A model generated the notes under the pieces. The model was not told the origin of the DNA. It ran no database searches and saw only the letters and a program-made list of their open reading frames with translations. Below, piece by piece: positions 1 through 20,189 of a stretch of 32,000 nucleotides of DNA (position 1 is its first letter; each line of letters starts with the position of its first letter). Source of the DNA: Vibrio alginolyticus NBRC 15630 = ATCC 17749 (GTDB taxonomy: Bacteria; Pseudomonadota; Gammaproteobacteria; Enterobacterales; Vibrionaceae); the NCBI RefSeq assembly GCF_000354175.2, contig NC_022359.1, forward strand, positions 1,680,001 to 1,712,000, read 5' to 3'. The position numbers and the translations under genes were made by a program.

Positions 1-2712
1 GTCAGAACAGAATCTTCATCAATGGTGTAAGAAGTTGGTCCTGCGACTGGTGGATCGTTCACTTCCATTACTGTAATGCCGGCAGTGGTGACATCCGTTG
101 CGCCTTCTTCATCAGCGACGACAACATCAAGCGTCACTTCACCATTAAAGTTTTCATTTGGAGAGAAGGTGTACGTACCGTCACCATTGATTTGCAACAC
201 ACCATCGCTGCCAGAGTAGCTCACGCTATCAATCGAGACATCCCCTTCTAAATCCGAAGAGTTTGCCAACAGTTGCGCGTCAGAAATGGTAATAGAGTTA
301 TCTTCGTGAACCGTGTAAGACGTTGAACCAGCCACCGGAGGATCATTCACCGGCGTAACGCTCACATCTACATTCGCTGAAACTGTATCTGTGCCATCAG
401 ATACGTCGAAGCTGAAGTTCACATCGCCATTGAAGTTCTCATTTGGCGCAAAGCTATATGTGCCATCTCCATTGTCAGTTAGAACGCCGTCGGTGCCTTC
501 ATAGCTGATTCCCGTTACAGAAAGGTCATCGCCTTCAATGTCGGTAGCACCTGCAAGCAGATCTGCATCAGTAAATTGAAGAGTGCCGTCCTCTTCCACA
601 CTGAATTGTTGATCTTGAGGAACAGGCAGATCGTTGATTGGATTAACGGTTAGGTCAGCGGTTGCTTGAACGGTATTCGTGCCATCTGAGATATCGAAGC
701 TGATATCGATATCACCATTGAAATCTGCGTCCGGCGTGATGGTGAAGCTACCATCGTCGTTTTGAGTCACCGTCGCGTTGCCATCTACCGAAAGATTAGA
801 TGCCGTCAGTGCATCGCCTTCCACATCGGAAGCTTGCGACAACAACTGTTCTTGGCTCAAACGAATCGAGCCATCTTCATCCACTGAGTAAGCAAGATTG
901 CCAGATACTGGCGCATCATCAACTGGCGTAACGTTAACATCAATGTTAGCAGAAACCGTATCCGTACCGTCGGACACATCAAAGCTGAAGTTCACATCAC
1001 CATTGAAGTTTTCATTTGGCGCAAAAGTGTAAGTCCCATTACCGTTGTCGGTCAGGATGCCATCGCCACCGTCGTAGCTCACACCTTCAACGGTGAGGTT
1101 ATCGCCTTCAATATCAGTAGCACCAGTAAGCAGGTCAGCGTCCGTAAAGATCAGCGTGCCATCTTCTTCCACGCTGAACTGCTGGTCTTGAGGAACCGGC
1201 AAATCGTTTATTGGGTTAACGGTTAGATCAGCGGTTGCTTGAACGGTGTTCGTGCCATCGGAAATATCGAAGCTGATGTCGATATCACCGTTGAAATCTG
1301 CGTCCGGCGTGATGGTGAAGCTACCATCGTCATTTTTGAGTCACCGTCGCATTGCCATCTACCGAAAGGTTAGACGCCGTCAGTGCATCGCCTTCCACAT
1401 CGGAAGCTTGCGACAACAACTGCTCTTGGCTCAAACGAATCGAGCCATCTTCATCCACCGAGTAAGCAAGATTGCCAGATACTGGTGCGTCATCGACTGG
1501 CGTAACACTAACATCAATGTTGGCAGAAACCGTATCTGTACCGTCGGACACATCAAAGCTGAAGTTCACATCGCCATTGAAGTTTTCATTTGGCGCGAAA
1601 GTGTAAGTCCCATTACCGTTATCGGTCAGGATGCCGTCGCCACCATCGTAACTTACACCTTCAACTGTGAGGTTATCGCCTTCAATATCCGTTGCGCCAG
1701 CAAGCAGGTCAGCATCGGTGAAGGTCAGCGTACCATCCTCTTCAATCTCAAAGGTTTTATCTTCAGGCACTGGTGCGTCATTGATTGGACGAACAGTTAA
1801 ATCAATCGAGCTAGAAATGGTTTCTTGACCATCACTGATATCAAACGTTAAGTCGAGTTCACCATTAAAATCTGTATCAGGTGTGACGGTATAAGTGCCA
1901 TCACCATTATCCACAACGGATGCATTAGCACCCACTTGCACGTTGAATGCGGCAAGATCATCGCCATCAACATCACTCGCGTACCCGAGAAGTTGTTCTT
2001 GAGTGAAGGTAATAGTGCCATCTTCATCCATGATGTATGCCAGATCTTGCCCTACTTCTGGCGCGTCATTTTCACCTTCGACTTTAATTTGGAACGTTTC
2101 GCTCGTAGTTTCGGAGTCGAAATCGTCTTCTACTTGCGTCGTGGTTTCTTCGCTGGTGTCTTGTACATCCACCGCGAAGCTCTCTTCAGTGGTTTCTGAA
2201 TCTAGCTCGTCACCACCTTGAGAACCTTCAGAGTCTGAAGAAGCACTTGGCGCAGATGAAGTTTGTACCGCTTGTCCTTGCGCTTCATTGCCTTCTGCGT
2301 CCGAACCACCTTCAGAGCCAGAGGCATCACCACCACCGACCGCTTGGGCACCCGCCCCAGAATCCGAACCACCGCTGCCCAGAGCCTGGTCACCTGATTC
2401 TCCGCTAGAAGCTACACTATCAACAACATTGGATTGTGCAGCGTCAGAGTCGCTGCTACTTTCAGTATCCTCTTCTTGAACTGCGCCACCCGAGCTCACT
2501 GCTTCTTCTTCCGTACCCGCGCCACTAGGATTTTCTCCCATCGCACGATTGGCTTCATCAACAGCATCTGCACTTTCAGCACCGGTCGCTACAGTCGAAG
2601 AGACGGTCGACTGCTGTTTTTCTTCTTTTGTCCCCGTATCCTTCGTTTCTGTTTGCTCTACCGCATCGTTAAGCTTTTCATTGTCTTTTTCTTGATTAGT
2701 GTCGCCTGCCAT
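1..2712 (-). CDS. Giant repeat adhesin, presumed T1SS substrate (5' part only; runs off the window). The frame is interrupted by a +1 frameshift at the T5 run 1333-1337.
   Basis: The minus-strand ORF 1330..2712 (460 aa) starts at an ATG at 2712 preceded by GGAGG and has no signal peptide. About 200 aa of acidic S/G/D/E/T-rich N-terminus is followed by ~95-aa modules (NDAPV..EDG..L..A.D.EGD..FNG..D.SDG). My hand translation of the minus strand from 1334 downward, in the neighbouring frame, continues the same module: NDDGSFTITPDADFNGDIDISFDISDGTNTVQATADLTVNPINDLPVPQDQQFSVEEDG... It stays open in the stretch I translated (1334 down to about 1141). The intact paralogous copy at ~755-780 reads GNATVTQNDDG, whereas this copy reads GNATVTQK-stop. 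Confidence 0.85.
330..1760. repeat. Tandem direct DNA repeat with a 573-bp period (two ~95-aa protein modules per unit), about 2.5 copies, inside the adhesin gene.
   Basis: GAGGAACAGGCAGATCG at 617 recurs as GAGGAACCGGCAAATCG at 1190, an offset of 573. Blocks ~617-1170 and ~1190-1743 align with only scattered substitutions by eye. The 330-617 copy is more diverged. Confidence 0.8.
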
Positions 2713-2897
2713 TACAGCCTCCGTTGCTTTTAGCTAACTGATCGTATTTAGAGGCAGTAAAGGACACCATTTTTAGAAACCAACTTTTTTATACAACTTT
2801 TTTCATACCTTTCGAGTTCTATAAAAACAAAAAAATTTGAAAACCCAGTATAAAGATCCTTACTTGTTGTCATTAAAGCAATTAGTGCGGTGGGATA

Positions 2898-3263
2898 ATG
2901 ATAAATATGACAAATCTGTTGCGCTCAGTCGACAACAGCCATAAAGGGCTGCAATTGCTATTAGGCGATTTTTACCAAGATTTCAGTGATGCAGGGATTG
3001 ATATTGAGATGCTGCATAAACAAAACCGTTTTGAAGCACTCAGATGTTATTCAAAAAGACTAAAGACCATTCTCGTCTTGTTATGTGATGACGACTTACC
3101 ACCAAAATTGGCAAAGCTTGAACACTTAAACAAACACCATTTCCCTGCTCCTAATGAATTGATCGAGGACGTTAAAACCGAGCTTAACAACGTAAACAAA
3201 CAAATTAGCCAGCTGTTAAAAATCGAAAATTCAATCGATAGCCGCACAGGTAGTGAATCATAG
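2898..3263 (+). CDS. Small hypothetical protein (121 aa), first gene of the T1SS operon. Predicted helical and soluble.
   Basis: The ORF lies after the AT-rich divergent promoter region. Its stop is 9 nt before the HlyD-like start, with GGGGTGG between them. I recognise no family. The true start could be ATG 2898 or 2907. Confidence 0.5.
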   Translation: MINMTNLLRSVDNSHKGLQLLLGDFYQDFSDAGIDIEMLHKQNRFEALRCYSKRLKTILVLLCDDDLPPKLAKLEHLNKHHFPAPNELIEDVKTELNNVNKQISQLLKIENSIDSRTGSES

Positions 3264-3272
3264 GGGTGGCTC

Positions 3273-4622
3273 ATGAGTAATAAGCAAATAGAACATCACC
3301 TCAAAAAGGCGCTTGTTTCGAACAACGAAGCTTCGAAGGTAACAGCAGACGATACAATCGTGCTAGCAAGTGCAATGACCAGCGTACACAAAACCTTGCT
3401 GGTTATCTTTTTGCTTTCCATGGTGGCTATCGCCGTGGCATCTCAGGCTCGTATCGACATTGTGGTGTCGGTGCGCGGTGAGCTATTGCTCGAATCTGAC
3501 ATCGAAAAAGTGCAACACCTTGAAGGCGGTATTCTAGAAGAAATGCTAGTGCGCAAAGGCGAAGTGGTTTATGAAGGTCAACCTATTGCACGCCTTCGCT
3601 CTCTGGATAGAAACACTCAACTTGATACGGTAAACACAGAGATCATTCAGCTTGAGCTAGACAAGATTCGTTACGAAAGCCTGCGCGATATGGTGGAACC
3701 CGATTTTTCTTCCTACATCGAAAAGTACCCAGAATTAGTGCAAGTCAACATGAATACCTGGCAGCAAGAATTTTCTAAAAACCGTTCCAATGAAGAGTTG
3801 ATCACTCACGATATCCAACATAAGAATTCGCTTATTGATTCAATGCTCAAGCGCCGTAAAAGCTCCGAGAACCAGCTCTCCTTGATACGCAAGCAGCTCA
3901 ATATTAAGAACACCTTGTACAAAGAGGAAATGGCGTCTTACGTCGATGTTCTGAATATGCAGGTTCAAGAGTCAAACATGGTGCGTGAGATAGAAAACCT
4001 TGATGAGTCGGTCATGAATGAGCGCTTCCAACTCGACAAACTAGAGAAGCAGTACCGAGACTTGGTGGAGAATCGTAATGCCGAGTATCAAGCACAAATC
4101 ATTCAAGCAAACAAGGACTTAAAGTTGAAACGTATATTACGTCCTCAACACTCAGATAAAGTGGATCGCCTCGTGGTTTACGCCCCTATTGACGGTGTAG
4201 TAGATAAAGTGCACTTCAACTTCCGCTCCGCTGTGATACCGCCAGGTGAAAGCATCGCGGACATTGCACCGATCAATAACGCCCTTCACGGAGAGGCGAA
4301 GATCCCGCGTAAAGACATGGGTTTTGTAGAAATCGGACAAGCGGTCAAAGTGAAGATGGATACCTACAACTTTGCCAAATACGGATTTTTGGAAGGTCGA
4401 ATTGCATCGATCAGCCGTTCTTCTTATGAAGAAGAAGACGCTGAATTCTACCTCGCGGAAATCCAAATCAGTCAAAACTATCTAGAGCGCGGAGGCACAC
4501 AATACAAGCTGTCCCCTTATATGGAGTTTACCGCAGACGTGAAAACAGGTTCACGCCGGGTGATCGAATACGCAGCGAAGCCGGTTATGTCGGCTATCGA
4601 AGACGCATTCGATGAGAGGTGA
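3273..4622 (+). CDS. HlyD-family T1SS membrane fusion (periplasmic adaptor) protein.
   Basis: 449 aa with a short cytoplasmic N-terminus and one TM segment (LLVIFLLSMVAIAVA). It then has the lipoyl-like motif (VQHLEGGILEEMLVRKGEVVYEGQPIARL), a long coiled-coil middle region, and a C-terminal beta-barrel-like region ending in a second hydrophobic-rich segment. This layout is typical of HlyD/LapC. Confidence 0.85.
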   Translation: MSNKQIEHHLKKALVSNNEASKVTADDTIVLASAMTSVHKTLLVIFLLSMVAIAVASQARIDIVVSVRGELLLESDIEKVQHLEGGILEEMLVRKGEVVYEGQPIARLRSLDRNTQLDTVNTEIIQLELDKIRYESLRDMVEPDFSSYIEKYPELVQVNMNTWQQEFSKNRSNEELITHDIQHKNSLIDSMLKRRKSSENQLSLIRKQLNIKNTLYKEEMASYVDVLNMQVQESNMVREIENLDESVMNERFQLDKLEKQYRDLVENRNAEYQAQIIQANKDLKLKRILRPQHSDKVDRLVVYAPIDGVVDKVHFNFRSAVIPPGESIADIAPINNALHGEAKIPRKDMGFVEIGQAVKVKMDTYNFAKYGFLEGRIASISRSSYEEEDAEFYLAEIQISQNYLERGGTQYKLSPYMEFTADVKTGSRRVIEYAAKPVMSAIEDAFDER

Positions 4623-4625
4623 TGG

Positions 4626-6857
4626 ATGAGTAGCAAACCTTCTTACAATATTTCCGTTCCTGTTATGCGCCTAAGCATCGCTTTCAGCTTGATGCTGGCT
4701 GCCCTCGCCTTTTATTTGTATATCTCTTGGGAAAAAGTGGATTCAGTCGAGAAAGTGCAAAACGCGCCTCTTTTGGTTCAAGCTCAACAGCTCAACCAAA
4801 CTATCGAGTTTGATATTCAAACGCTTCAACGCTGTTTAAGCGCACGTTATTGCAGTACAACAGAGCTTGATTTTGAGGTTCTGAAAGACGAAATTGACCA
4901 ATTTAAGTCGCTCGCGTCACTCAACAAAACCGAGTTTAGCTTGGTGGGCGCGACCGAATACACGCAGCTTGAACTGGCAATCAATCGGTTCTCAGACAGC
5001 CAAAAAACACGCGACGATGTGTTGGCACTGTACCTCTCGCTCACCAATAACTACCTACAAATGGACGACAACTACAGGACCATATTTAACAACCATGCGA
5101 GCGACCTAATGATGGAGAAAAACGAGTTCTTCATTTGGTTGTTTGTGGTCGTTGTCGTACTGGTTGGTATCGCAGTGCTATCGAACTTGGTGGCAATCCT
5201 TAAACTGAAAAAATCCAGCTCGAATGAGCGTGACATTGATCAAGAATTCGACGGGCTTTATCAAGAACTCAAACAACTGGATTTACAGAGGTTGGAAGAG
5301 TTGCTCAATGAAGTGAGCATCAATCCGAAGCAGCGTCAGATCTACTCTCACCTAAAACTGATTTTCAGCAAACTCGAAGAGCAAAAACGTAATAACGATC
5401 TCTACAAGCAGCTCTATGCTCTGATTGGTTACGAGATTCGTGGCATCACCAACACTATTAACGGCGGCGTGCAATATCTCGTTCAAGAGACCGATGAGAG
5501 CGGCGTGTTGATGGCGCAAGATATAACCTCGGCTGCCAATACCCTGTCTGAATTGGCAGAGAACTATAACCGACTCATTTCACAAGGGACCGAGAGCAAA
5601 TCGAAAGAGTTTTCACTGCTTAATGTGCTGTCTGAATTGATGATTCACATCAGTTCAAAAGTGCAGCGAAATGAAGGTGAGCTAGACTGCTTTATCTCGG
5701 ATAACTTACCAAACCGTGTTGAAGGGCAATCCACCAGCTTATTCTGGGTGTTGTTCCTACAGCTATCGAATGCCATCCAACTCAAAGCCGACAAAAAACT
5801 GTTTGTCACCATTGAATCGGGCGCAGCGTCAGACATTGAAAACACTCGCCTGACCATCAATCTAAACTTCTTAACCACACTGGATGTGCCGTTTGCCAAG
5901 CTCAATACACTACACTGGAGCGACCATAAACAGCACACCGCAACCAAAGACGATTTGGCGAAAAGCGTACTGAAAGATTACGGCTATTACGAGAGCCATT
6001 GGTATCAATCGGGCAATCAGGAACGTTTTCAAATTCAGCTCGATTTGAAAGCCAAAAGCTTCCACACCGAGAAAACTCGCTTCGATAATAAGCGCCTATT
6101 ACTGTGTGCCAACTCTCAGCTGCGCATTGATGTGATGAACAAAATGTTAGTCAACTTGGGCTTAGAGATTACGCCAATTCGCACACCAAACGAGCTCTTC
6201 TCTGCGGCAAAAACCTTTGGCGAATACGATGCCATCATGCTGACTGACACGTTCGAGCCAAACAAGCTGCCCTCACTGAGCAAAACGGTGAAATCGCAAC
6301 TGCGCAATCACCCAAATACTAAATTGCTGCTTTCAGTCACTAGCACTCAGCAAGCACAAGAGAGCCATACCTTTGTCGACAAGATTCTGAACTCTCCTGC
6401 GATTCCGTATGAGTTCATCCCTAACCTATTGGCAATCATGGAAGCGGAAGCCTCTGAAGATCAGATGGAGAACAGCTCATTCCTGATTGTTGAGGATGAC
6501 CGTGTTCAACAGATTCTACTCAAACGTATTTTGAGCAAGCAAGAATACGAAGCCGACACCGTTGGCGATGGCGCAGACGCTGTTCAGCACTTCATGAACC
6601 AGCGCTCGGATATCATTTTTATGGACTGCATCATGCCGGGTATGGGCGGCATTGAAGCAACCAAACGCATTCGACAATACGAACAAGAGAGCGGACAAAA
6701 CCCTTGCACCATCATAGGTGCGACAGCATTGACCAGCAGTAATGAACACCAAGCTTGTATCGAAGCTGGAATGGATTACGTGATCAGCAAACCTTATAAA
6801 AACGACGAAATCATCAAGGTGATCAACAAGTATGTGGCGGTACAGAAACTTAACTAG
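4626..6857 (+). CDS. Membrane sensor with hybrid histidine-kinase-like architecture: degenerate DHp (Tyr replaces the phospho-His), degenerate CA domain, pseudo-receiver, and an intact C-terminal receiver (REC).
   Basis: Two TM segments (aa ~15-33 and ~167-190) flank a ~130-aa periplasmic region. The H-box-like segment LYALIGYEIRGITNTING compares with the consensus FLAxMSHEIRTPLNxI, with Tyr269 encoded at nt 5430-5432. An N-box-like LQLSNAIQL is present, but I find no DxGxG / GxGxG boxes. The terminal REC has EDD, FMDCIMPGMGG (Asp at nt 6624-6626), ATALT and SKPY. Confidence 0.75.
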   Translation: MSSKPSYNISVPVMRLSIAFSLMLAALAFYLYISWEKVDSVEKVQNAPLLVQAQQLNQTIEFDIQTLQRCLSARYCSTTELDFEVLKDEIDQFKSLASLNKTEFSLVGATEYTQLELAINRFSDSQKTRDDVLALYLSLTNNYLQMDDNYRTIFNNHASDLMMEKNEFFIWLFVVVVVLVGIAVLSNLVAILKLKKSSSNERDIDQEFDGLYQELKQLDLQRLEELLNEVSINPKQRQIYSHLKLIFSKLEEQKRNNDLYKQLYALIGYEIRGITNTINGGVQYLVQETDESGVLMAQDITSAANTLSELAENYNRLISQGTESKSKEFSLLNVLSELMIHISSKVQRNEGELDCFISDNLPNRVEGQSTSLFWVLFLQLSNAIQLKADKKLFVTIESGAASDIENTRLTINLNFLTTLDVPFAKLNTLHWSDHKQHTATKDDLAKSVLKDYGYYESHWYQSGNQERFQIQLDLKAKSFHTEKTRFDNKRLLLCANSQLRIDVMNKMLVNLGLEITPIRTPNELFSAAKTFGEYDAIMLTDTFEPNKLPSLSKTVKSQLRNHPNTKLLLSVTSTQQAQESHTFVDKILNSPAIPYEFIPNLLAIMEAEASEDQMENSSFLIVEDDRVQQILLKRILSKQEYEADTVGDGADAVQHFMNQRSDIIFMDCIMPGMGGIEATKRIRQYEQESGQNPCTIIGATALTSSNEHQACIEAGMDYVISKPYKNDEIIKVINKYVAVQKLN

Positions 6858-8256
6858 CTGCGTATTGGCAGCGCTTACATTGAGCAATGCTCCTTCAGCA
6901 ATGGCGACCACCTTGCTTGAGGCGGTCAAACTCGGCTTGGAAAACAATTTATCTCTGCGCGCTAGTGACAAAGGCGTGGAAGAAAACGAATACAACATCG
7001 ACATTAGCCGTTCTAAGTTCCTGCCCTCTTTAAACGGTGCCGCTGATACCACATGGAATGAAAACGAGACCATATTAACGGGAACACCGGATACGCGTTC
7101 TAGCTACAACTCAAACAGCTACAGCGTGTCTTTATCTCAATCGGTGTTTAACCTTGGCGACATCTTCAAATACGGCACCGCGAAGCTTGATTTCAACATT
7201 GAAGAAATCAAACACGAGAACAAAATCCAGAGCACCATTTCTGAAATCGCGACTCAATATTTCGAGTACCTGAAAAACAACGCGCAAATCAAAGCCACCA
7301 AAGTCGAGCTTAAATCTTCTGAAACGCGTGAACGCCAAATGCGTCGCAACGTGGAGCTTGGTAACACTGCGGCGAGCGAGTTGTATGAGGTGATTGCTCA
7401 GAAAGAAGGCATTGCCAATCGCTTAAGAACCTTAGAGAAAGACCGACGTGTGATTTTGAACGGTTTAGAGATTCAAGTTCAATACCCGGTCACCCCATCG
7501 CAGGACATCTACGAAAGCGTGCCCTTGGCGGAAATCAGCGAATCCGAACAACGCGCGATTCTTGAACAAGCTTTGAAGCTCAATAACGACTTATTGGTTG
7601 CGAAGAAGACCGTAGAACGAAGCCGAAGAGGCTTGAAAGAAAGCGGTTCAAACTTTGTGCCGACCGTGTCGCTCTCTGCCAGTTACCGTTACGACGATGC
7701 GAACAACTATGACCGAACCGACCCAACCGCAACAGGGGACAGTAACTCCACCAGCGTCGGTTTGAACTTGAATGTGCCGATTTTCTCCGGCGGTTCGGAT
7801 TATTACGGTTATCAAAAATCTTCAACTGCTATCGAGCGAACCGAGCTACTTTACCAAGATTCGTTGTTCACTACGCGCAATAGCGTTAACACCTCGGTAC
7901 TCAACATTAATGACTTCTCCCGCGCTATTAGCAGTTACGAGAACATCATTCGTGCAAACTACGCTTCCTACAAAGGCATTCAACGCGCTTACCAGCTTGG
8001 CACGCGAACCATTACCGACTTACTGGCAGCGGAGAGTAAACTGTTTAGCGCGCTACGTGATTACGAGAGCGCGCGTTATGACTACATCATTGAATCAATC
8101 AATCTTGAGCAAATCAAAGGCATGCTGTCGGTGCAGTCCATCGAAAGCATCATGCAATTGATGAGCGATATCGAAGGCAGAAGCAATCAAGACTTAGTTC
8201 CAAAACACCTTCTCTCCAAACCATCGATTAAGAAAGGAGGTCGCAATGCAAACTGA
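6832..8256 (+). CDS. TolC-family outer membrane factor dedicated to the T1SS.
   Basis: The signal peptide is MWRYRNLTSCVLAALTLSNAPSAMA|TT. The mature N-terminus LLEAVKLGLENNLSLRA... and the two-repeat TolC-like layout fit the family. The start overlaps the preceding gene by 26 nt. Confidence 0.85.
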   Translation: MWRYRNLTSCVLAALTLSNAPSAMATTLLEAVKLGLENNLSLRASDKGVEENEYNIDISRSKFLPSLNGAADTTWNENETILTGTPDTRSSYNSNSYSVSLSQSVFNLGDIFKYGTAKLDFNIEEIKHENKIQSTISEIATQYFEYLKNNAQIKATKVELKSSETRERQMRRNVELGNTAASELYEVIAQKEGIANRLRTLEKDRRVILNGLEIQVQYPVTPSQDIYESVPLAEISESEQRAILEQALKLNNDLLVAKKTVERSRRGLKESGSNFVPTVSLSASYRYDDANNYDRTDPTATGDSNSTSVGLNLNVPIFSGGSDYYGYQKSSTAIERTELLYQDSLFTTRNSVNTSVLNINDFSRAISSYENIIRANYASYKGIQRAYQLGTRTITDLLAAESKLFSALRDYESARYDYIIESINLEQIKGMLSVQSIESIMQLMSDIEGRSNQDLVPKHLLSKPSIKKGGRNAN

Positions 8257-9832
8257 GCATTTTTCCCAAAGGATTAACTTTGCTGACAAGTGTTACCTGA
8301 CTTTCTCAACGATCATCTCGACGCTGTTTGGTTTAGTACTGCCCTTTTCGATTCTGATTATCTTTGACCGAGTTTTACCTAACCAAGCCAAAGACACGCT
8401 GTTTCTTCTGTTTGCCATTATCTTGATCACCATCTTCCTCGACTATCACTTAAAGAATCAGGAAGAGAAGATTTCGTCGGTGATCATGAAGCAGTTCGAA
8501 ACCAACCTAACCAACAAGGTGTTTCAATCCATCTGTTTGGCTGAGATATCGAAGTTTCGTCGCCTAGAACCCGGTGAATACCTAGAACGTATTGCCACCA
8601 TTCCAGAGATTAAATCCTTCTTTGGCGGAGAATCTGTTCGGGCATTGATCAACCTTGCCATCAGCATACTGACCATTCTGATTATCGGTCTGATCAACAT
8701 TTGGGCGGGAGTGACCATCTTGCTCGCCTCCATAGTTTTAGCGGTGTTCGCACTCAGTCTTTCCAAGCAAAAAATCAACAGCCTAGAAAACAAATCCGAC
8801 ATCGAAGGCTTAACCACTTCGAAAATCATCGAGATCATCTCTAGCCCACTCGATATCAAAGCACGCAATATGGAATATCGCGTCGAGAGCTTGATGACAC
8901 AAATGGTGGAAGAACGTGAAGTCGAGAACATCAAATACGAGCAAATCGAATCAAACTTCAACCTTATCTTGTCGCTCATACAACAGCTCTCCATCGCTTG
9001 TGTGGTGGTGGTTTTAGCAACGGCAGTTATCAACATGCAATCTAGCCAAGGCATCATGGCAGCCATCATCATGCTTACCAACCGCTACTTCGCCCCATAC
9101 CAGCAAGTGATGCGCACGGTGAGTCGCTGGGAGTTGAACAAGCTTCATATTCAACGAATCGCCGAGTTGCTTGAGCTTGCTGCGTCTGTAGAACAACAAA
9201 ATGACACGACAGAAGTCGAGCGCATCTCGGTGAAGTATTCGGAAAAACAACGCATCGAGTTCGAACGCGGTCAGGCTTACTTGCTAACGGGGAAAAGCGG
9301 CGCAGGCAAAACCCATCTTGCCAATTGCATTACACGGCAAAACACCGACAGCAAGCTCGATATCCAAATCAACGAGACACCGCTCGATGACGTCAATTAC
9401 AACGTCTGGCGTAATAGCGTGCTGATGGTCGACAAAACCAGCTCGTTCGTCGAAGGCACCATCATCGACAACTTGACTTGTTTCCGCCCAAGCTTAAATA
9501 ACACGGCATTTGCGCTTTGCGAAACCATGAACATCAAAGCACAAATCGATGCCCTTCCCGCTGGTTTTTACACCGAGCTTAAAGGGCATTTACGCAACCC
9601 ATTCTCGCGCCAAGTCGCTTATGCCTTGTTGTTGGTGCGTGCCTTACTCGCAAACAAACGTGTGTTGATCTTCGACGACATCGACTGTGTTTATGATGAC
9701 GACTTTGCTCGATTGGTTTTGACCAGTACTGCTTATCGCGCCAACGACAAAATACTCATCATCGTCAGCAATAAGATGGACAAACTCAATCATCGCCTCA
9801 AACGCGTCAAACTTACCGGAGGTGACCAATGA
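8246..9832 (+). CDS. T1SS ABC half-transporter A (528 aa). It has no N-terminal accessory domain, and its nucleotide-binding domain carries degenerate catalytic motifs.
   Basis: The RBS is AAAGGAGG. The TMD has ...LPFSILIIFDRVLP.... Walker A GKSGAGKT (9290-9313) is present. The Walker B region reads VLIFDDID (9662-9685), with Asp where the catalytic Glu normally follows. The signature position reads NPFSRQ instead of LSGGQ (from 9596). The H-loop position reads IIVSNK, with no His. Confidence 0.8.
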   Translation: MQTEHFSQRINFADKCYLTFSTIISTLFGLVLPFSILIIFDRVLPNQAKDTLFLLFAIILITIFLDYHLKNQEEKISSVIMKQFETNLTNKVFQSICLAEISKFRRLEPGEYLERIATIPEIKSFFGGESVRALINLAISILTILIIGLINIWAGVTILLASIVLAVFALSLSKQKINSLENKSDIEGLTTSKIIEIISSPLDIKARNMEYRVESLMTQMVEEREVENIKYEQIESNFNLILSLIQQLSIACVVVVLATAVINMQSSQGIMAAIIMLTNRYFAPYQQVMRTVSRWELNKLHIQRIAELLELAASVEQQNDTTEVERISVKYSEKQRIEFERGQAYLLTGKSGAGKTHLANCITRQNTDSKLDIQINETPLDDVNYNVWRNSVLMVDKTSSFVEGTIIDNLTCFRPSLNNTAFALCETMNIKAQIDALPAGFYTELKGHLRNPFSRQVAYALLLVRALLANKRVLIFDDIDCVYDDDFARLVLTSTAYRANDKILIIVSNKMDKLNHRLKRVKLTGGDQ

Positions 9833-11967
9833 GTATTTTGGTTGATTTTAATAATGTCCCTCAGCGCTTGTTGGACTTTGAGGCTCGCAGTTATGACGAG
9901 CGATACAATGAGTCACCTTTGATTCGTGGTTTAGCTTACACCCTCATAGCGCTTGAATGGGAAGGCACACCTTCTATCCTCAGCGACGCTTTTATCCCTA
10001 AACCAAAAGACAGCGACAGTTTTATCGCTACGATTGAACGCCTTGGTTACCGTTGTGACGTCACCAAACTAAAAACGTTGGAGCACATCGAGGGGCACCC
10101 TCATCCTTGTTTTATCGAGATAGAAAACCTCACTGCGATTTTCTTGGGCACCAAAGACGGCAAGCTGATCCTGTTTGATTACACCAATAACAACACCATT
10201 GAATACCCGCTCTGCAAAAAGCCATGCTTGTTGGTCTCTATCAGCGAATACTCGCGCTTGTTCCGAGAGCCACCACCTGAATCTCAAGACCGCAGTAACT
10301 GGATTAAATACGCGTTTTATCGCTACAACAATGAACTCAAGAGCCTGATTATCCTCAGCTTCGTGGTCAGTATTCTCGGCGCACTCCAGCCCTTTTTTAT
10401 TATGAGTGTGTACAACTTCGCCTTAACCTCTAGCTCGCAAGCCACGCTTTATTGGCTCACGTTATTTGCTGTGATTGTTGGGTTCTCGGAATACTTTTTC
10501 AAGAAAATGCGGGTCAACATCATCGCCACATCAGGGAAGGATTTGGCGGTGCATATTTCTCAAAACGTAATATCCAAACTGTTGTGGCTTCCTTATTCGA
10601 TGACATCTACCGCTGGTGTCTCTTCTCAGTTAGCACGTTTGAAAGACATCGACACTTTCCGCCGTTTGGTAACCGCAGAGTCAACATTAAGCTACTTCGA
10701 CATGCCGTTTGTTATCGTATTCATTATTGCCATTGCTCTTATGTCTGGTACCGCAGCGCTAGTCGTTATGGCGGGGTTGATTCTAATGTTGGTGTTCTGT
10801 GTTTATTCTCGTTACATCTACTCGCAAGCCACGTCCAAGAGCTCTCGCGCCAACGCCATGGTTTCTTACCAATGGAATGAGATTCTTCGTGGTATAAAAA
10901 CCATCCAAGGCTTGCCATTGTTGCGTGTTATCCAGTCCCGCTTTAGCGCATCGCATTTACAAAGCACCAACGATGCAGAACATGTTTCAGTGACTAATAG
11001 CAGGGTTCAGGCAGCAGGCGGAAGTTTGATTCAGGTTATTGGTACCGCAAGTATCGTGACTGCGGTTATCGGCGTAATGGATGGCACATCTGATGCCGGT
11101 GCCATGCTTGCAACCGTAATTCTAGTCTGGAAGGCGTTAGGTCCGATAATGGGTATCTACAACTCCATTTCCAAATTCCAATCCATTAAGGCGTCCTCTG
11201 CGCAAATCAACAACCTTATGGCGATGAATGATGACAAGCTAACGTTGGAGAAAAGCCCCCCTATTCGCCTCTTCCAAGGCAGCATTGTCGGCAGCGGTGT
11301 AAGCCATCGCTACACTGGCGCAGCAACGGGCTTAACCAATCTCGGATTTAAAATTGCCCCAGGGGCGAAGGTGGTGATTTGTGGACCGACTGGTTGCGGC
11401 AAAACCACGCTAATTTCCATCCTTGCGGGTTTAGAAGATAGATACCAAGGCGCAGTGTCGGTAGACGGTTACAACATCAAACAGTTCAACAGCTATCGCT
11501 ACCGAACCTCGATTAACTACATCCCGTTTAATTTGCATATTTTTGAAGGCTCCTTGGAGACTAACTTCATCTTGCATAATGGATTAATCCCAACAGAAAA
11601 AATGCGTGAAATGGTGAGTTTCTTTGAGCTCGATACATGGTTACCACAAGGCCTGGACACTCAATTGAGCGTTGATATCTGTAAAAGTTTACCAAATGGT
11701 ATTCAACAAAGACTGCGGCTCGCATTAGGGCTAGGCAACTGCGAACAATCTTTGATTATCATTGACGAGCCATTTAATGGTGCAGAGCAAGAAAACTCCC
11801 ACTATTTCAAGCGGTTATTTAGCGACAAACTACTCAATAAGACCGTTATTTTCTCAACGAATGATCCGGGCATGATCTCTACATCCAATATGAGCTTAGT
11901 CTTGGAGCCAGATGGCAACCTGAAATATTTCGGGTTAACCGATAAGTACTTAAAAAGTCTAAGTTAA
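9829..11967 (+). CDS. T1SS ABC half-transporter B (712 aa) with an N-terminal Cys-less C39-like domain.
   Basis: An ATGA overlap joins it to the upstream gene. The ~150-aa N-terminal domain has the C39-like pattern but no catalytic Cys context. Walker A is GPTGCGKT (11383-11406), the signature variant is LPNGIQQ (11689-11709), and Walker B is LIIIDEP (11752-11772). Confidence 0.85.
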   Translation: MSILVDFNNVPQRLLDFEARSYDERYNESPLIRGLAYTLIALEWEGTPSILSDAFIPKPKDSDSFIATIERLGYRCDVTKLKTLEHIEGHPHPCFIEIENLTAIFLGTKDGKLILFDYTNNNTIEYPLCKKPCLLVSISEYSRLFREPPPESQDRSNWIKYAFYRYNNELKSLIILSFVVSILGALQPFFIMSVYNFALTSSSQATLYWLTLFAVIVGFSEYFFKKMRVNIIATSGKDLAVHISQNVISKLLWLPYSMTSTAGVSSQLARLKDIDTFRRLVTAESTLSYFDMPFVIVFIIAIALMSGTAALVVMAGLILMLVFCVYSRYIYSQATSKSSRANAMVSYQWNEILRGIKTIQGLPLLRVIQSRFSASHLQSTNDAEHVSVTNSRVQAAGGSLIQVIGTASIVTAVIGVMDGTSDAGAMLATVILVWKALGPIMGIYNSISKFQSIKASSAQINNLMAMNDDKLTLEKSPPIRLFQGSIVGSGVSHRYTGAATGLTNLGFKIAPGAKVVICGPTGCGKTTLISILAGLEDRYQGAVSVDGYNIKQFNSYRYRTSINYIPFNLHIFEGSLETNFILHNGLIPTEKMREMVSFFELDTWLPQGLDTQLSVDICKSLPNGIQQRLRLALGLGNCEQSLIIIDEPFNGAEQENSHYFKRLFSDKLLNKTVIFSTNDPGMISTSNMSLVLEPDGNLKYFGLTDKYLKSLS

Positions 11968-12072
11968 GTTCGGAATGTGGTGTGGTTCATCATTCATACT
12001 TGAGCACGGTCATTGACAAAAATGTAAACGATGAGACTATTTACTCTGTAAGCGCGTACACTAAGGAATCCG

Positions 12073-12447
12073 ATGTATACATTTGTTGCAGACAAATTGG
12101 ATGTGGTTTATTTATCAACAATACCAGAAAACTACCAGTTACAAGACTTCGATGTGCCTGAAGAAGAACTCGAAATTCGTGAAATTGTAGAGGTATGGTA
12201 TGAGTGTGCGTTTCTTCCTGACTTTAACCTTCAACACATCGACATCGAAAACAAAACCTCATTAGTCGAGACACAAGCGCAAGTCGTAAACAACTACACA
12301 AGTACGCTCGCTTTTTTACTCAAAAGTCGTGCTTATCGCGCAGCACTTAACCGATTATTGAGTGTATGGAGATTGGAGGCAGCAGCTAAAGCACAGCTTG
12401 AGCTGCTGTTACTTACGGAAGAACAGAGTAGCAAGCCAGTAAATTAA
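12073..12447 (+). CDS. Hypothetical protein (124 aa), acidic N-terminal half and helical C-terminal half.
   Basis: The ATG has a good RBS (TAAGGAATCCG-ATG), and a TTGACA hexamer lies ~55 nt upstream. I recognise no family. It is convergent with the sigma-factor gene. Confidence 0.45.
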   Translation: MYTFVADKLDVVYLSTIPENYQLQDFDVPEEELEIREIVEVWYECAFLPDFNLQHIDIENKTSLVETQAQVVNNYTSTLAFLLKSRAYRAALNRLLSVWRLEAAAKAQLELLLLTEEQSSKPVN

Positions 12448-12473: not shown

Positions 12474-13364
12474 TTAAACCCAACCATCGAATCGGAGACG
12501 TTTCTGCACGCGTTCAACCGCCTCTATCTGCATCTGACGAACACGCTCGTTAGACACGTTTAACAACAGGCCTATTTCCGACAAGGTTTTCACTCTCTGG
12601 TCAAATAATCCGAATCGATGGATCAAGACTTTTTGCAACTTAGTTGGCAAGGTTTTAATAATATTTTCAATAGCTTGAGTAAAGCACTGATTTTCACAGT
12701 CTTGTTGTGGATCTGGCGTATACTCACTTTCACACAGTTCAAGAACAAATGGAACGCGATGTAGGTCCGCAGTGGTCGATACATCAATAAAGCCACTAAG
12801 CGCAACAAGTTCATCTATACGCTCTGCTTTCACCCCTGAGCAGCGTGAGAGTTCAGAAATAGACAACTCCTTGCTCTCACTTTTTGACGCATCGAGCTTT
12901 TTTAAAGCCAGGCTATTTATCTCTTTGCACACATGAGCAGGTAAACGTACCGTGCGGCCATTGTTCATTAATGCCGCTTCTATATTCTCGCGAATCCACC
13001 ATACCGCATAAGTAGAAAAACGGTAGCCTGGCTCAGGATCGAACTTATCGACCGCTTTTATCAAACCAATATTACCTTCTTCTATTAAATCGAGCAGAGT
13101 AAAGTTATTGCCTGGCCGTTTGAGGTAGCCTTTTGCGATTTTCACAACAAGTCGAAGATTAGACTCAATCAACATTTCGCGCGCTTCTTCATCACCAGCT
13201 CGATTAAGTTTGGCGTAATGCAACTCCTCTTCACGAGACAACAAATCAATCCCCACAATATCTTTGAGATAGTGAGCATAAGGGTCTTTCCCAACTGACA
13301 ACGATTCTTTCATTGACAGTTCATCCGTGACAGCTCGGAACCTAGCAAAGCATTCGTTGTTCAT
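12474..13364 (-). CDS. RpoS-like sigma-70 family sigma factor, probably a paralog rather than the housekeeping-context rpoS.
   Basis: 296 aa. It carries [58 protein letters not shown] and RTVRLPAHV, with region 4 [26 protein letters not shown]. This is close to E. coli RpoS regions 1.2-4 as I remember them. There is no nlpD neighbour. RpoS-like paralogs have been described in Vibrio (I recall the name rpoX in V. alginolyticus). Confidence 0.8.
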
Positions 13365-13697: not shown

Positions 13698-15140
13698 CTA
13701 ATTCACTTGACGAAGCGCAGGTTGAAGCTGACAGTCTGTTATAACTTGGAAAACTGCACGATTCTTTCCTTCAGACTTACCTTGATACATCAACTCGTCA
13801 GCATCTTGCAAGCTCACGATGTGGGTAAACTCAGGATAGTAAGCACAGCCCAAACTGATACTCAAATGAATTGCTTGTCCACCCAGTATAACAGGCTGAT
13901 CGTAAACGGCTTTACAAAGCATATTGGCAAAATTGAGCGCTTCTCGCTCTGACAGAGACGACGTAACGAGTGCGAACTCTTCTCCTCCAATTCTCGCCAA
14001 TGTCATTCGGTCATCAGTCATCGACTTAGCGGCTTCTGCGATGGCAACTATTGCTCGGTCTCCAGCAAGGTGGCCATATCGATCATTGATTGATTTAAAA
14101 TCATCAATATCAAACACCATCACCGTTAAGTTTCGCTTCAAATGATTCAGTAGCGCCAATTGCTCAATCAGGTGTCTACGGTTGTATAGCTTTGTGAGAG
14201 AATCCGTCAACGTCATCTCCAGCAATTGCTGATTGGCAATCGTTAATTGCCTTGTCCGAAGAGCAACCATACGTTTGAGGGCAAAAATATGATAAAGCGT
14301 TGCAATCGCCATAATGAAAATAGCAATAGGGAAAAGATAAAGTGGATAAACCGTTTTCACCACACTCCAACGGGTGAGGATCCGCTCACGATCCGTATCG
14401 ATGACTTTTTCAAACGCTCTTGATACCTCTAAAATGGAAGTTGCACTGTGCATTCCTGCTGCAATCCGAAGATCTTTACTATATAAGCTAATTGTCGGGA
14501 CAAACATACCCGCTCCCGGCGTGGTTGCCATATAAAAGTTAGCAACTTGCAGGTCTGCAACAAAGTACAGCACCTTTTTATCGACGGCGGCTTGTATCAT
14601 CGAATCATTGTTAATGTATTCTGCGATAGGTGCATTCGGATAATTCGTCTGAACAAACTCAGACTCGTAACTTCCTTTAACAACGCCAATTGGCATCGTC
14701 ATTTCGCCAGTTAAAACACTCCTGATATCAACCGAAAGTACATCTTTATTTACGTACAATTTGGTTTGGATAGGCATTATGACGGCGCCAAAGTCCATAT
14801 ACTTCGCTCTTTCGGGCGAGTAGACAAGTCCTCCGTGAAAGTCAGCCTTACCCTCTTTTACGGCTTGCAAAGAAGCATCCCAATCCAAAAGGAGAAACTG
14901 AACGTCAATTTGGTTGTTCGCCGCGTACTCTTTCCAAAAGTCGATTAAAATACCTTTAGGTTCACCATCTGGGCTAAGGTAAGAGAACGGCTTCCACGCT
15001 TTGGAGTTAGCAACAATTAAAGAATGAGACTCTGATTTGTGCGCATGCGCCATCGGACAAATGGACAGCCACAGTAGTAATAAAGAAGCACACGCTTTTT
15101 TACATTTGCAACCATAAGTACCATAACTCGTCGATGACAT
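13698..15140 (-). CDS. Diguanylate cyclase: periplasmic solute-binding (SBP type 3-like) sensor domain, TM segment, coiled coil and GGDEF domain.
   Basis: An N-terminal signal/TM is followed by an SBP-like region (KPFSYLSPDGEPKGILIDFWKEYA...DWDASLQAVKEGKADF). The TM segment is VYPLYLFPIAIFIMAIATLYHIFAL. The GGDEF domain has the active-site motif RIGGEEF. No RxxD I-site occurs at the usual -5 position (the sequence there is DDRMTLARIGGEEF). Confidence 0.85.
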   Translation of the reverse strand: MSSTSYGTYGCKCKKACASLLLLWLSICPMAHAHKSESHSLIVANSKAWKPFSYLSPDGEPKGILIDFWKEYAANNQIDVQFLLLDWDASLQAVKEGKADFHGGLVYSPERAKYMDFGAVIMPIQTKLYVNKDVLSVDIRSVLTGEMTMPIGVVKGSYESEFVQTNYPNAPIAEYINNDSMIQAAVDKKVLYFVADLQVANFYMATTPGAGMFVPTISLYSKDLRIAAGMHSATSILEVSRAFEKVIDTDRERILTRWSVVKTVYPLYLFPIAIFIMAIATLYHIFALKRMVALRTRQLTIANQQLLEMTLTDSLTKLYNRRHLIEQLALLNHLKRNLTVMVFDIDDFKSINDRYGHLAGDRAIVAIAEAAKSMTDDRMTLARIGGEEFALVTSSLSEREALNFANMLCKAVYDQPVILGGQAIHLSISLGCAYYPEFTHIVSLQDADELMYQGKSEGKNRAVFQVITDCQLQPALRQVN

Positions 15141-15294
15141 ACCTACTTCTCACCAGTCTTTTTAAACCATAATCTCGGCTGTTTGATTAGACTAAAGATA
15201 TAGTAGAGTTGCATAAGACAGGAAGTGACGCTTATTGATATGAATCTAACTTAGTAAGTTTTAGTACTTAATTGGTACTTTCAACGCCTGGTTC

Positions 15295-15369
15295 GCTGAA
15301 GCAGTTGAAGCAGTTGAAGCAGTTGAAGCAGTTGAAGCAGTTGAAGCAGTTGAAGCAGTTGAAGCAGTA
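15295..15369. repeat. Perfect 9-bp tandem repeat (GCAGTTGAA) x7, plus partial copies at both ends.
   Basis: Copies fall at 15301, 15310, 15319, 15328, 15337, 15346 and 15355. They are flanked by GCTGAA and GCAGTA partial copies. The array is intergenic, between the arfA stop (15390) and the GGDEF gene start (15140). Confidence 0.95.
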
Positions 15370-15389
15370 CATGATAAATTAGGAATAAC

Positions 15390-15677
15390 TTATCTGGTAC
15401 TAAAAAATTGAATATCATCAGTTTTGCAAACACCTAGTACCAATAAAAAAGCCCTATTCAAAATCCACCTTGGGGAGAACTTTGAATAGGGCTCTTTGCC
15501 TCTATGCTTCATTTTACGGCTGAAGCTACCTTTACCTTTTTTCGCTTTAACGACTCGTGTTTGGAACAGCTGACTGGTAACAACCGCTTTTAACGCGTTG
15601 TCTTTGATTTCACCTCTGCCGAAGTCGGTCTCATGTTGTGAGCCACTCGGTTGAGGACTGATTTTACGCTTTGCCAT
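15390..15677 (-). CDS. arfA: Alternative ribosome-rescue factor ArfA (nominal full-length ORF; the functional product is expected to be C-terminally truncated).
   Basis: GEIKDNALKAVVTSQLFQTRVVKAKKGKGSFSRKMKHRGK matches E. coli ArfA ([37 protein letters not shown]) as I remember it. The RBS is strong (AAGGAGG, 5 nt before the ATG). Confidence 0.8.
   Translation of the reverse strand: MAKRKISPQPSGSQHETDFGRGEIKDNALKAVVTSQLFQTRVVKAKKGKGSFSRKMKHRGKEPYSKFSPRWILNRAFLLVLGVCKTDDIQFFSTR
15441..15492 (-). terminator. Intrinsic-terminator-like hairpin inside the arfA ORF.
   Basis: A 12-bp perfect stem pairs GCCCTATTCAAA (15451-15462) with TTTGAATAGGGC (15481-15492). On the minus-strand transcript it is followed by TTTTTT (15445-15450). 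Confidence 0.75.
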
Positions 15678-15861
15678 AAATCCTCCTTAATGGTCGAACC
15701 AGATTGGACAATAATTATATAAATAAGTCAAATTTATAGATTTAGTTGAATTTTATGCTAAAAAACTTCACATCACCGTCATTTATTTGAAATTTAATCA
15801 AAAACATGCTGGTTAAATAGTGACTAAATACAAATATTTGTCCATAAAGCACTAATATATG

Positions 15862-15889
15862 TTGACTCTTCGTGGAATTAACCTAGACT
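15862..15889 (+). promoter_or_regulatory. Candidate sigma-70 promoter for the csp gene (TTGACT-16 nt-TAGACT).
   Basis: The hexamers lie at 15862-15867 and 15884-15889. This would give a leader of ~145 nt, similar in size to known cspA leaders. It rests on the sequence pattern only. Confidence 0.3.
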
Positions 15890-16042
15890 CAAACACGGCT
15901 AGAAAGAAAGTTCTTTGTTTTCACATTTCGTTGGATTACTTGTAACCCGTCGTCCTGTGGTACGCAATAGCAATTTATTTTTCCACGCTATAAGCGCCGT
16001 TGAGGCGAAAGATTACATTATTTAGATATTTAGGAAATAGAC

Positions 16043-16252
16043 ATGTCTAACACAGCTACTGGCACAGTTAAGTGGTTCAACGAAACTAAAGGCTTCGGTT
16101 TCATTCAACAAGAAAACGGTCCTGACGTATTTGCTCACTTCTCTGCAATCACTGGTGACGGCTTCCGTACTCTAGTTGAAGGCCAGAAAGTAGAATTTGT
16201 TATCTCTCAAGGCCAAAAAGGCCCTCAAGCAGAGCAAATCAAAGTACTTTAA
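16043..16252 (+). CDS. CspA-family cold-shock protein (69 aa).
   Basis: [15 protein letters not shown] (RNP1) and DVFAHFS (RNP2) are present. The RBS is AGGAAA. Confidence 0.95.
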
Positions 16253-16272
16253 TTCTTAAAGAATTTGATACG

Positions 16273-16304
16273 ATAGCCAGCTTTTAAAGCTGGCTATTTT
16301 TTTG
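16273..16304 (+). terminator. Rho-independent terminator after csp.
   Basis: ATAGCCAGCTT..AAGCTGGCTAT is followed by TTTTTTT. Confidence 0.85.
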
Positions 16305-16341
16305 CCTAAAACTTATTTTGCCAACAAAACGATATAAATCT

Positions 16342-17416: not shown

Positions 17417-17527
17417 AATACATGGTTTTATCCATTTCAAACAACTGATAGACTTCACGCTCAGTGCAACAAGCATCATGATTGCATTCTTAAAGGACAA
17501 TTACCCAATGAACATCAAGGGATCATT

Positions 17528-17887: not shown

Positions 17888-17915
17888 GTTCCCCCTATGA
17901 ACATTGGCGGATGTA

Positions 17916-17950
17916 AAAGAGGCACCTAACGGTGCCTCTTTTCTATTTTT
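17916..17950. terminator. Rho-independent terminator after the glutaredoxin gene; possibly bidirectional.
   Basis: AAAGAGGCACC-TAAC-GGTGCCTCTTT is followed by TCTATTTTTT. An A-run sits on the other side. Confidence 0.8.
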
Positions 17951-19620: not shown

Positions 19621-19633
19621 ACAAGGAGATTAC

Positions 19634-20107: not shown

Positions 20108-20146
20108 ATCTAGAAAGCTTTGTCTTAAAGCCAAAGTATCAAAACC

Positions 20147-20181: not shown

Positions 20182-20189
20182 AAGAGAGG

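Follow-up and report, generated by a model that had tools for sequence, protein, structure and literature searches.

A 32,000-nucleotide stretch of the genome of Vibrio alginolyticus NBRC 15630 = ATCC 17749 (NC_022359.1, positions 1,680,001 to 1,712,000; this whole stretch is referred to below as the window) corresponds to chromosome 2 of the Vibrio harveyi clade and is predicted to contain a conserved seven-gene cassette, in which the gene for a giant, acidic cadherin-repeat adhesin is divergent from a six-gene operon for a private type I secretion system (T1SS). As judged from their sequences, two products of this operon, a histidine phosphotransfer (Hpt)-family protein and a receiver-bearing pseudo-histidine kinase (pseudokinase), are conserved and selected components of the cassette. 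We consider it probable that, in this T1SS, a phosphorelay operating at the secretion machine itself is coupled to the export or retention of the adhesin.

The six plus-strand open reading frames (ORFs) and the five junctions between them that had been proposed in a sequence-only reading of this DNA were re-derived from the sequence and were found as placed (Table 1), with a 9-nt gap, a 3-nt gap, a 26-nt overlap, an 11-nt overlap and an ATGA overlap. The 26-nt overlap is taken to be real because the start at 6832 gives the outer membrane factor (OMF) a normal signal peptide (MWRYRNLTSCVLAALTLSNAPSAMA); the start of the small first ORF at 2898 agrees with the N-terminus of its family, MI[ND]. 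A consensus scan found five promoter-like sites inside the operon against 16.7 expected, which is no excess, and no convincing plus-strand terminator was seen within the operon in a scan that was not decisive. The tight junctions are preserved in dozens of orthologous loci. Family searches on the six products bore out the proposed membrane fusion protein (MFP), the OMF, the two ATP-binding cassette (ABC) proteins and a receiver domain; only the small ORF had no match in Pfam or NCBIfam.

The signalling-type membrane protein that had been described as a sensor does sit between the MFP and OMF genes, but it is without kinase residues. Its 743 amino acids comprise a first transmembrane helix (TM1), a periplasmic helical domain (residues ~38–165) with invariant Cys70 and Cys76, a second transmembrane helix (TM2), DHp-like helices in which Tyr269 replaces the phospho-accepting histidine, a degenerate CA-like domain, a pseudo-receiver (~489–606) and an intact receiver (619–742). 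The C-terminal Response_reg domain (85 bits) is the only Pfam domain in the protein; HisKA and HATPase_c were undetected by Pfam, and NCBIfam gave weak RcsC and BarA alignments over residues 263–741. In an alignment of 20 homologues Tyr269 is invariant within the H-box (LIGYEIRG), the N-box Asn is variable and the G boxes are unrecognisable by eye, and the receiver residues D624, D625, D667, T700 and K722 are all invariant. The same alignment showed both periplasmic cysteines to be invariant and a SLVGA.EY motif to be present in the ~130-residue periplasmic domain; the DHp-like helix was the best-conserved segment outside the receiver. When sensors and neighbouring kinases from 13 loci were aligned, Tyr or Phe occupied the His position in every operon-embedded sensor, and the neighbouring kinases had SHEIRTPL and a normal N-box.

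An AlphaFold (AF2) model of the protein (mean predicted local distance difference test score, pLDDT, 78) has two transmembrane helices flanking a helical periplasmic domain, followed by DHp-like helices, a CA-like α/β domain, the pseudo-receiver and the receiver. Its best match among solved folds is full-length ShkA (6qrj; DHp-CA-REC1-REC2; E 5e-19), with further matches to the RcsC C-terminus, RetS and GacS. An active hybrid kinase can be ruled out, as the histidine is missing and HATPase_c is undetectable; and neither the Pfam scan nor the AF2 model revealed a cytoplasmic output domain, whether DNA-binding or enzymatic. The ratio of non-synonymous to synonymous substitution rates (dN/dS) for the gene is 0.04. 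Full-length homologues were found down to ~30% identity, and a profile search of 1.84 billion proteins returned ~33 full-length representatives at 50% clustering; on this sampling of sequences the family is small and specific. Hits in Marinobacter (L078–L082, 24% identity) were not accepted as members, being canonical kinases with no T1SS context. A predicted fusion of sensor and OMF (P0042; L084, 1230 aa, on a 4.7-kb metagenome contig) was likewise set aside as evidence for coupling because a cytoplasmic receiver joined to a Sec signal peptide is topologically senseless; it is probably a frameshift artefact in the 26–53-nt overlap.

The small ORF at the head of the operon had been described as an unknown leader. 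It does head the operon, but it is not anonymous: it is a relative of Hpt proteins. In most related loci the MFP gene is immediately preceded by an ORF of 105–130 aa; 57 of these were united in a single family by an iterative profile search and a 58th was added by a six-frame search. Positional orthologues from Photobacterium, Shewanella, Oleiphilaceae, Aliagarivorans and one further bacterium pass the Pfam Hpt model PF01627 (28–36 bits against a cut-off of 24.6) and bear the phospho-accepting motif as HSLKG, HTLKG or HTLSG. At this site the window has KRLKT; KRLKT or KKLKT is found across the V. harveyi and V. splendidus clades, and YQLRT in three other Vibrio loci. Overall the phospho-accepting histidine is kept in 30 of the 57 family members; the other 27 have Lys or Tyr instead. 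A profile built from the 30 His-bearing members only matched the window ORF along its whole length (E 3.4e-10) and set HsLkG over its KRLKT. The dN/dS of the small ORF is 0.053 by comparison with the V. owensii copy, a value that places it under purifying selection at the sequence level and not in decay. Its positional family, its Hpt homology and this low dN/dS of 0.05 together rule out an orphan or spurious leader peptide.

The order MFP–sensor–OMF–ABC1–ABC2 is kept in ~70 loci retrieved with the sensor as seed, in more than 10 genera (Vibrio, Aliivibrio, Photobacterium, Thaumasiovibrio, Shewanella, Psychromonas, Colwellia, Oleiphilaceae, Paraferrimonas, Aliagarivorans and a Micavibrio metagenome-assembled genome, MAG), and matches to cadherin repeats adjoin the operon in nearly all of them. 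As a locus set of this kind is biased by its seed, an independent search was seeded with ABC1. The pseudokinase was at the same place in 10 of the 10 loci that could be judged: in three of three diverse homologues in contigs a ~740-aa receiver protein lay between the MFP and OMF genes, and the seven metagenome loci with enough flanking sequence had the same arrangement. In Shewanella surugensis the adhesin gene (2216 aa) and the six operon genes form a compact module with unrelated genes on either side. Clustering of the ORFs of 77 loci found no other gene conserved across genera and, in particular, no conserved LapD/LapG cluster and no conserved DNA-binding response regulator; LapG/LapD-type genes, which the sequence-only reading had reported as missing, are indeed absent among the scanned ORFs of the window. 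The proposal that the signalling protein is a part of the secretion unit and not a chance neighbour is thus upheld both by the synteny of ~70 loci and by the ABC1-seeded search. For the small ORF the same proposal holds in part, as it lies upstream of the MFP gene in 57–58 loci but is missing from about a dozen. Tight coupling and synteny of this kind show co-inheritance and co-expression, not contact with the apparatus.

Several loci depart from the common order. The ABC genes are located elsewhere in L063, and L072 has the order ABC1–ABC2–MFP–sensor. In a Psychromonas MAG (L076, 8000–20400), at 25–35% identity, two MFP–pseudokinase pairs flank a single ABC1–ABC2 pair; there is no OMF match in this locus, and its pseudokinases have Tyr at the His position. 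The Micavibrio MAG (L088) has a divergent Hpt gene recognised by Pfam and, as a separate gene, a single-domain receiver (4049–4818, minus strand); both are transcribed away from an MFP–pseudokinase–OMF–ABC1–ABC2 operon with the adhesin downstream. In one complete Aliivibrio fischeri genome (L086, CP160630.1; 6404–8628 and 11583–13734) the genes for the pseudokinase and ABC2 are broken into two ORFs apiece, through either decay of the cassette at this locus or faulty assembly; both genes are intact in another A. fischeri contig (L085).

The remaining four operon products have the features of a T1SS conduit, namely a HlyD-family MFP, ABC exporters with fused transmembrane and nucleotide-binding domains and a TolC-family OMF. 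The MFP score against TIGR01843 (Table 1) is well above the cut-off of 208.65; the OMF matches Pfam OEP in two stretches and, at 201 bits, falls just under the TIGR01844 cut-off of 225. ABC1 and ABC2 each have one transmembrane and one nucleotide-binding domain (Pfam ABC_membrane and ABC_tran) and share only 18% identity. Their nearest solved relatives are the T1SS ABC protein 5l22 for ABC2 (E 9e-32) and full-length HlyB for ABC1 (E 9e-15), and both proteins fall far under the cut-offs of the NCBIfam T1SS ABC subfamilies LssB, PrtD and HlyB. With two ABC genes, the locus does not have the homodimeric, single-ABC design with canonical motifs of CLD-type, HlyB/LapB-like exporters. A census of 66 orthologues for ABC1 and 63 for ABC2 showed a conserved asymmetry: ABC1 keeps Walker A, has DD in Walker B without the catalytic Glu, a FSRQV signature and Asn in the H-loop (SNK); ABC2 keeps Walker A, has DEP in Walker B with the catalytic Glu, a LPNGIQQ signature and likewise Asn in the H-loop (TND). 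From these motifs we infer that the two probably form a heterodimer in which one half is competent and the other degenerate.

Only ABC2 has ~150 extra residues at the N-terminus, a domain that ABC1 lacks. Pfam Peptidase_C39 gave no match there, and a homology search with this segment returned 11 gene fragments only, so that its model (pLDDT 74.5) was built on a shallow alignment. The top fold matches of the model are consistently C39 or C39-like domains, namely those of PCAT1, ComA, HlyB and a Vibrio toxin exporter; by eye, no catalytic Cys was found at the start of the equivalent helix.

That a giant adhesin gene is divergent from the operon, as the sequence-only reading had it, proved real, but the window holds only its first ~900 codons and the reading frame is interrupted. 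ORF 1330–2712 (460 aa) ends early owing to one extra T in the T-run at 1333–1337 (an A-run on the coding strand), which is the sole difference from strains L001 and L002 over 2900 nt; the frame from 1334 runs for 444 codons, stop-free, to the window edge. In strains with identical operon proteins the gene is intact and encodes 6416–6799 aa. The frameshift is either a pseudogene-forming or phase-like homopolymer change or a sequencing error. The AT-rich intergenic region presumably holds the promoters of both the adhesin gene and the operon. The adhesin orthologues have in common a ~70-residue, low-complexity N-terminal motif, LNDAVEQ...NTIASTIATGAE...NPSGAG (2500–2712 in the window, minus strand), which was also tabulated as LNDAVEQ..T...QQNQQNTIASTIATGAE...NPSGAG. 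Where the window has PSGAG, SAAG or TAAG stands in some orthologues, similar to a LapG cleavage site; the N-terminus encoded in the window is acidic, of low complexity and without the di-alanine. The adhesin C-terminus falls beyond the window, so a C-terminal secretion signal was considered only through the complete Shewanella orthologue, which is acidic and Cys-free over its 2216 aa and matched neither RTX nonapeptides nor TIGR03661.

A hybrid kinase with HisKA, HATPase_c and one or two receivers adjoins the operon in at least 22 loci. Such kinase-neighboured loci occur in the V. splendidus clade, Aliivibrio (L019 and L020), Thaumasiovibrio, Psychromonas, Shewanella, a Pseudomonadales genome, an alphaproteobacterial MAG and L066; in one locus the neighbouring kinase has an Hpt domain of its own. 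Across genera these kinases are 35–45% identical, over cores up to full length, and this level of identity therefore suggests an ancestral partnership of the cassette with a hybrid kinase. Many loci have no kinase within 10–20 kb, the window among them, where none was found in the 20 kb downstream of the operon.

Table 1. Features of the window (nucleotide positions are those of the 32,000-nt stretch)
Feature	Position	Strand	Basis or remark
Giant cadherin-repeat (tandem-95) adhesin gene, 5' part	1..2712	-	Pfam Cadherin_5/Cadherin_4/Big_9; NCBIfam tandem-95 repeat, 214 bits
Divergent intergenic region, AT-rich	2713..2897	.	Sequence read directly
Hpt-family small ORF (121 aa)	2898-3263	+	Degenerate; phospho-accepting His of HxLKG replaced (KRLKT)
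MFP, HlyD family (449 aa)	3273-4622	+	TIGR01843 type_I_hlyD, 296.4 bits; Pfam HlyD_3
Inner-membrane pseudo-histidine kinase with receiver (743 aa)	4626-6857	+	Pfam Response_reg; fold match ShkA
OMF, dedicated, TolC family (474 aa)	6832-8256	+	Pfam OEP, 199 bits; signal peptide
ABC1, half-transporter without N-terminal domain (528 aa)	8246-9832	+	Pfam ABC_membrane and ABC_tran
ABC2, half-transporter (712 aa), putative C39-like N-terminal domain at ~9-140	9829-11967	+	Pfam, NCBIfam
orf124, acidic 124-aa protein	12073..12447	+	105 nt after ABC2; no family match
RpoS-like sigma factor (296 aa)	12474-13364	-	252-260 bits against RpoS equivalog cut-offs of 379-394
SBP_bac_3-GGDEF diguanylate cyclase, periplasmic solute-binding domain fused	13698-15140	-	Two genes from the cassette
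aa3-type cytochrome c oxidase cluster and assembly genes	20190-27977	-	

Beyond ABC2, orf124 recurs at the same position in ~20 loci, in Vibrio only, and is possibly a lineage-specific seventh gene of the operon. In the loci that bear it the Hpt gene, if present, is always His-less, and orf124 was never found beside a His-bearing Hpt; this correlation may reflect shared ancestry. The adjacent sigma factor scores below the RpoS cut-offs and is therefore a paralogue and not RpoS itself; the same gene adjoins the cassette in seven further Vibrio loci (L007, L023, L025, L045, L048, L050 and L071). The gene for the SBP_bac_3-GGDEF protein is found near the cassette in the V. harveyi clade only, and its product is a possible local link to cyclic di-GMP (c-di-GMP). 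Synonymous divergence (dS) along 2898–12447 is mosaic by comparison with V. owensii (L007), at ~1.5 for the small ORF, 0.69 for the MFP gene, 0.16–0.21 for the sensor, OMF and ABC1 genes, 0.58 for ABC2 and 1.8 for orf124, a pattern that suggests recombination inside the cassette; ABC1 is 98–99% identical among V. harveyi, V. alginolyticus, V. parahaemolyticus and V. diabolicus. Genes of housekeeping character fill the remainder of the window (15200–32000), which, besides the oxidase cluster, encodes YaeQ, a glutaredoxin, an OmpA-family protein, a thioredoxin-like protein, an FKBP, a phosphoglucomutase, a GNAT acetyltransferase and a LysE exporter.

In the working that we propose for the cassette, the conduit would consist of the HlyD-type MFP, the dedicated TolC-like OMF and a probably heterodimeric ABC exporter, in which ABC2 would provide a C39-like substrate-docking domain and the only catalytic Glu, and ABC1, its diverged partner, would have an impaired ATPase site. 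The receiver of the pseudokinase would be the control point. The flow of phosphate that we infer for the ancestral form would begin with a hybrid kinase, often encoded beside the operon, which would phosphorylate the Hpt protein, and this in turn would phosphorylate the receiver. Given that the pseudokinase is without a DNA-binding or enzymatic output, it would act by protein contacts at the membrane, and its candidate targets are the T1SS (by gating adhesin export or retention), the adhesin in the periplasm or, as with RetS or RcsD, a partner kinase. In lineages of the V. harveyi and V. splendidus type the His-less Hpt probably serves as a non-phosphorylatable, receiver-binding adaptor and not as a phosphotransfer step. 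Control at the level of the machine is favoured because the pseudokinase gene stays between the MFP and OMF genes and because no transcription factor is linked. The most novel form of this proposal, which we advance tentatively, is that pseudokinase-receiver and Hpt protein are the endpoint of a phosphorelay embedded in the machine, a c-di-GMP-independent counterpart of LapD that would either gate the export or retention of the adhesin in response to phosphorylation of the receiver, or signal to a phosphorelay whether the adhesin is being secreted or is engaged.

A number of observations weigh against control by a phosphorelay at the machine. The V. splendidus clade pairs a true hybrid kinase with a His-less Hpt, where a simple relay fails, and the lineage of the window lacks both a phospho-competent Hpt and a kinase next to the operon; a simple relay therefore cannot be the whole story. 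The Hpt gene is missing from about a dozen loci (the V. mediterranei/maritimus clade, L019/L020, L023 and L024), so it is a frequent and not an obligatory part, dispensable in some lineages. Loss of the ATP site in the pseudokinase is read from the absent Pfam match together with motifs judged by eye, and the C39-like assignment in ABC2 from marginal Foldseek matches (E 7e-4 to 1e-2, TM 0.4–0.6) on a 10-sequence alignment. Finally, as the adhesin gene is frameshifted here, the secretion system may be inactive in this particular strain.

The conserved periplasmic domain with its two invariant cysteines and SLVGA.EY motif invites a different account of the same parts, in which an inside-out switch, a phosphorylation-driven analogue of LapD, would pass the state of the receiver through the DHp-like helices to the periplasmic domain, which would bind or release either the N-terminal segment of the adhesin or an unlinked protease, leaving the adhesin tethered in the OMF or shed. 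Such a switch fits a pseudokinase without a cytoplasmic output domain, the co-occurrence of the ~70-residue adhesin motif with the cassette, the SAAG or TAAG of some orthologues and the lack of a linked LapD or LapG in the 77 loci and the window ORFs; and it has a precedent in CheM, which by direct contact switches SiiE from being released to being retained (bioRxiv 10.1101/2021.05.14.443827). We nevertheless regard it as rather unlikely, since the acidic, low-complexity N-terminus is unlike the folded retention module of LapA-type adhesins, the window copy has no di-alanine and a protease partner was not identified.

The fold matches to RetS, GacS and the RcsC C-terminus raise the alternative that pseudokinase and Hpt protein serve as a phosphate sink or kinase antagonist, as in RetS–GacS or RcsD–RcsC, and so tune a phosphorelay that governs expression of the adhesin and the operon, their genes being in the operon for co-expression only. 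A highly conserved DHp-like helix would suit heterodimerisation with a true kinase, canonical hybrid kinases adjoin at least 22 loci and an RpoS-like sigma factor adjoins several Vibrio loci. This transcriptional role is nonetheless improbable in our view: no DNA-binding response regulator is conserved in the loci, many of them, the window included, have no kinase within 10–20 kb, and the gene always lies between those for MFP and OMF, with overlaps kept across genera, which would be unexpected of a purely regulatory gene. The loss of the kinase His, of the ATP site and, in the V. harveyi clade, of the Hpt His, with the entire Hpt gene gone from some lineages, could also be taken to mean that both genes are trapped relics of a former two-component system, functionless at least in the V. 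harveyi clade. We give this very little credence, as both genes are full-length and intact in more than 10 genera, their dN/dS values are 0.04 and 0.05, and the receiver active-site residues, the Tyr/Phe substitution and the periplasmic cysteines are conserved, whereas relics would gather frameshifts.

Attachment of marine and pathogenic bacteria to surfaces, hosts and particles is governed by giant T1SS adhesins. To our knowledge, the post-translational control of these adhesins is known essentially through c-di-GMP, LapD and LapG, with SiiAB/CheM as the other example. A second conserved control module, made of phosphorelay parts and hard-wired into the operon between the genes for MFP and OMF, would, if true, mean that secretion machines can recruit two-component signalling directly; and if the pseudokinase and Hpt protein are indeed a phosphorelay endpoint, this would be the first T1SS directly controlled by two-component chemistry at the apparatus. 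The loci with a His-bearing Hpt, with a His-less Hpt and with no Hpt gene form a natural series for comparison, the single intact receiver Asp is a handle for point mutation and the cassette is found in tractable organisms (V. harveyi, V. alginolyticus, V. parahaemolyticus, the V. splendidus clade, Aliivibrio fischeri, Photobacterium and Shewanella). Beyond MARTX, the asymmetric ABC1/ABC2 pair could likewise serve as a model of heterodimeric T1SS exporters.

Neither the sensor nor the small protein is covered by an NCBIfam model, and a full-text literature search, covering other than subscription-only articles, found no description of this cassette or of an Hpt/pseudokinase module in a T1SS operon. 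The neighbourhood of V. cholerae craA (VCA0850–0855) was considered as a described homologue and set aside, since the articles searched mention its ABC genes only in passing, and the Pseudoalteromonas BapP cluster belongs to a different, MacAB-like system. Among characterised systems, the cassette shares features with Lap, MARTX and SiiE yet lacks the defining features of each. In the Lap system of Pseudomonas fluorescens and Vibrio cholerae a LapA-type adhesin is exported by the LapBCE T1SS under the control of LapD and LapG (PMC6890996). As in Lap, a giant repeat adhesin gene lies beside its own ABC, MFP and TolC-like OMF genes, and the secretion system is genetically linked to a protein of the inner membrane that derives from signalling proteins and has degenerate catalytic domains. 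Unlike Lap, neither LapG nor LapD (HAMP-GGDEF-EAL) is encoded by the window ORFs or conserved in the loci; the protein presumed to exert control here is a pseudo-histidine kinase with a receiver, alongside an Hpt protein, so the expected input is phosphorylation and not c-di-GMP. There are also two ABC genes here against one in Lap, and the adhesin has a low-complexity N-terminal motif (PSGAG) in place of a folded retention module with a TAAG or (T/P/A)AAG site.

The comparison with MARTX made in the sequence-only reading is valid, since the Vibrio system RtxB–RtxD–RtxE with TolC has two ABC proteins, both of which are needed (PMC3034196). Both systems have two different ABC proteins encoded in one operon that is divergent from the substrate gene. 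MARTX differs in its gene order (B–D–E), an OMF encoded elsewhere, a toxin as substrate and the lack of signalling-type genes; the present locus is without the rtxC/rtxH features, has its own OMF and a cadherin-repeat substrate, and its ABC pair, only 18% identical, includes an ABC1 with no N-terminal domain. The haemolysin system HlyB/HlyD/TolC is similar in its HlyD-family MFP and HlyB-like ABC exporters, ABC2 having a putative C39-like domain without an obvious catalytic Cys. It differs in its homodimeric HlyB with canonical ATPase motifs, in an unlinked TolC and in having no accessory signalling proteins; moreover its substrate has RTX nonapeptide repeats, of which there are none in the complete Shewanella adhesin orthologue.

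The giant-adhesin T1SS operon of Salmonella pathogenicity island 4 (SPI-4), SiiABCDF with SiiE, resembles the cassette in carrying extra inner-membrane accessory proteins; of these, SiiA and SiiB are MotAB-like. In that system CheM alters adhesin retention by contacting the machine and not by transcription (bioRxiv 10.1101/2021.05.14.443827). CheM is encoded elsewhere, however, and the SiiE system has a single ABC protein and no Hpt/receiver module. RcsD/RcsC, RetS and ShkA (6qrj) show the closest likeness to the pseudokinase, with an architecture of periplasmic domain, transmembrane segment, DHp, CA, pseudo-receiver and receiver. None of them is encoded within a secretion operon; RcsD bears an Hpt domain of its own, ShkA and RcsC are active kinases, and RetS has two receivers and acts on GacS. 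RcsD, like the pseudokinase, has lost the phospho-accepting histidine, and for the pseudokinase, as for this group of proteins, action through protein contacts and Hpt-mediated transfer would be expected.

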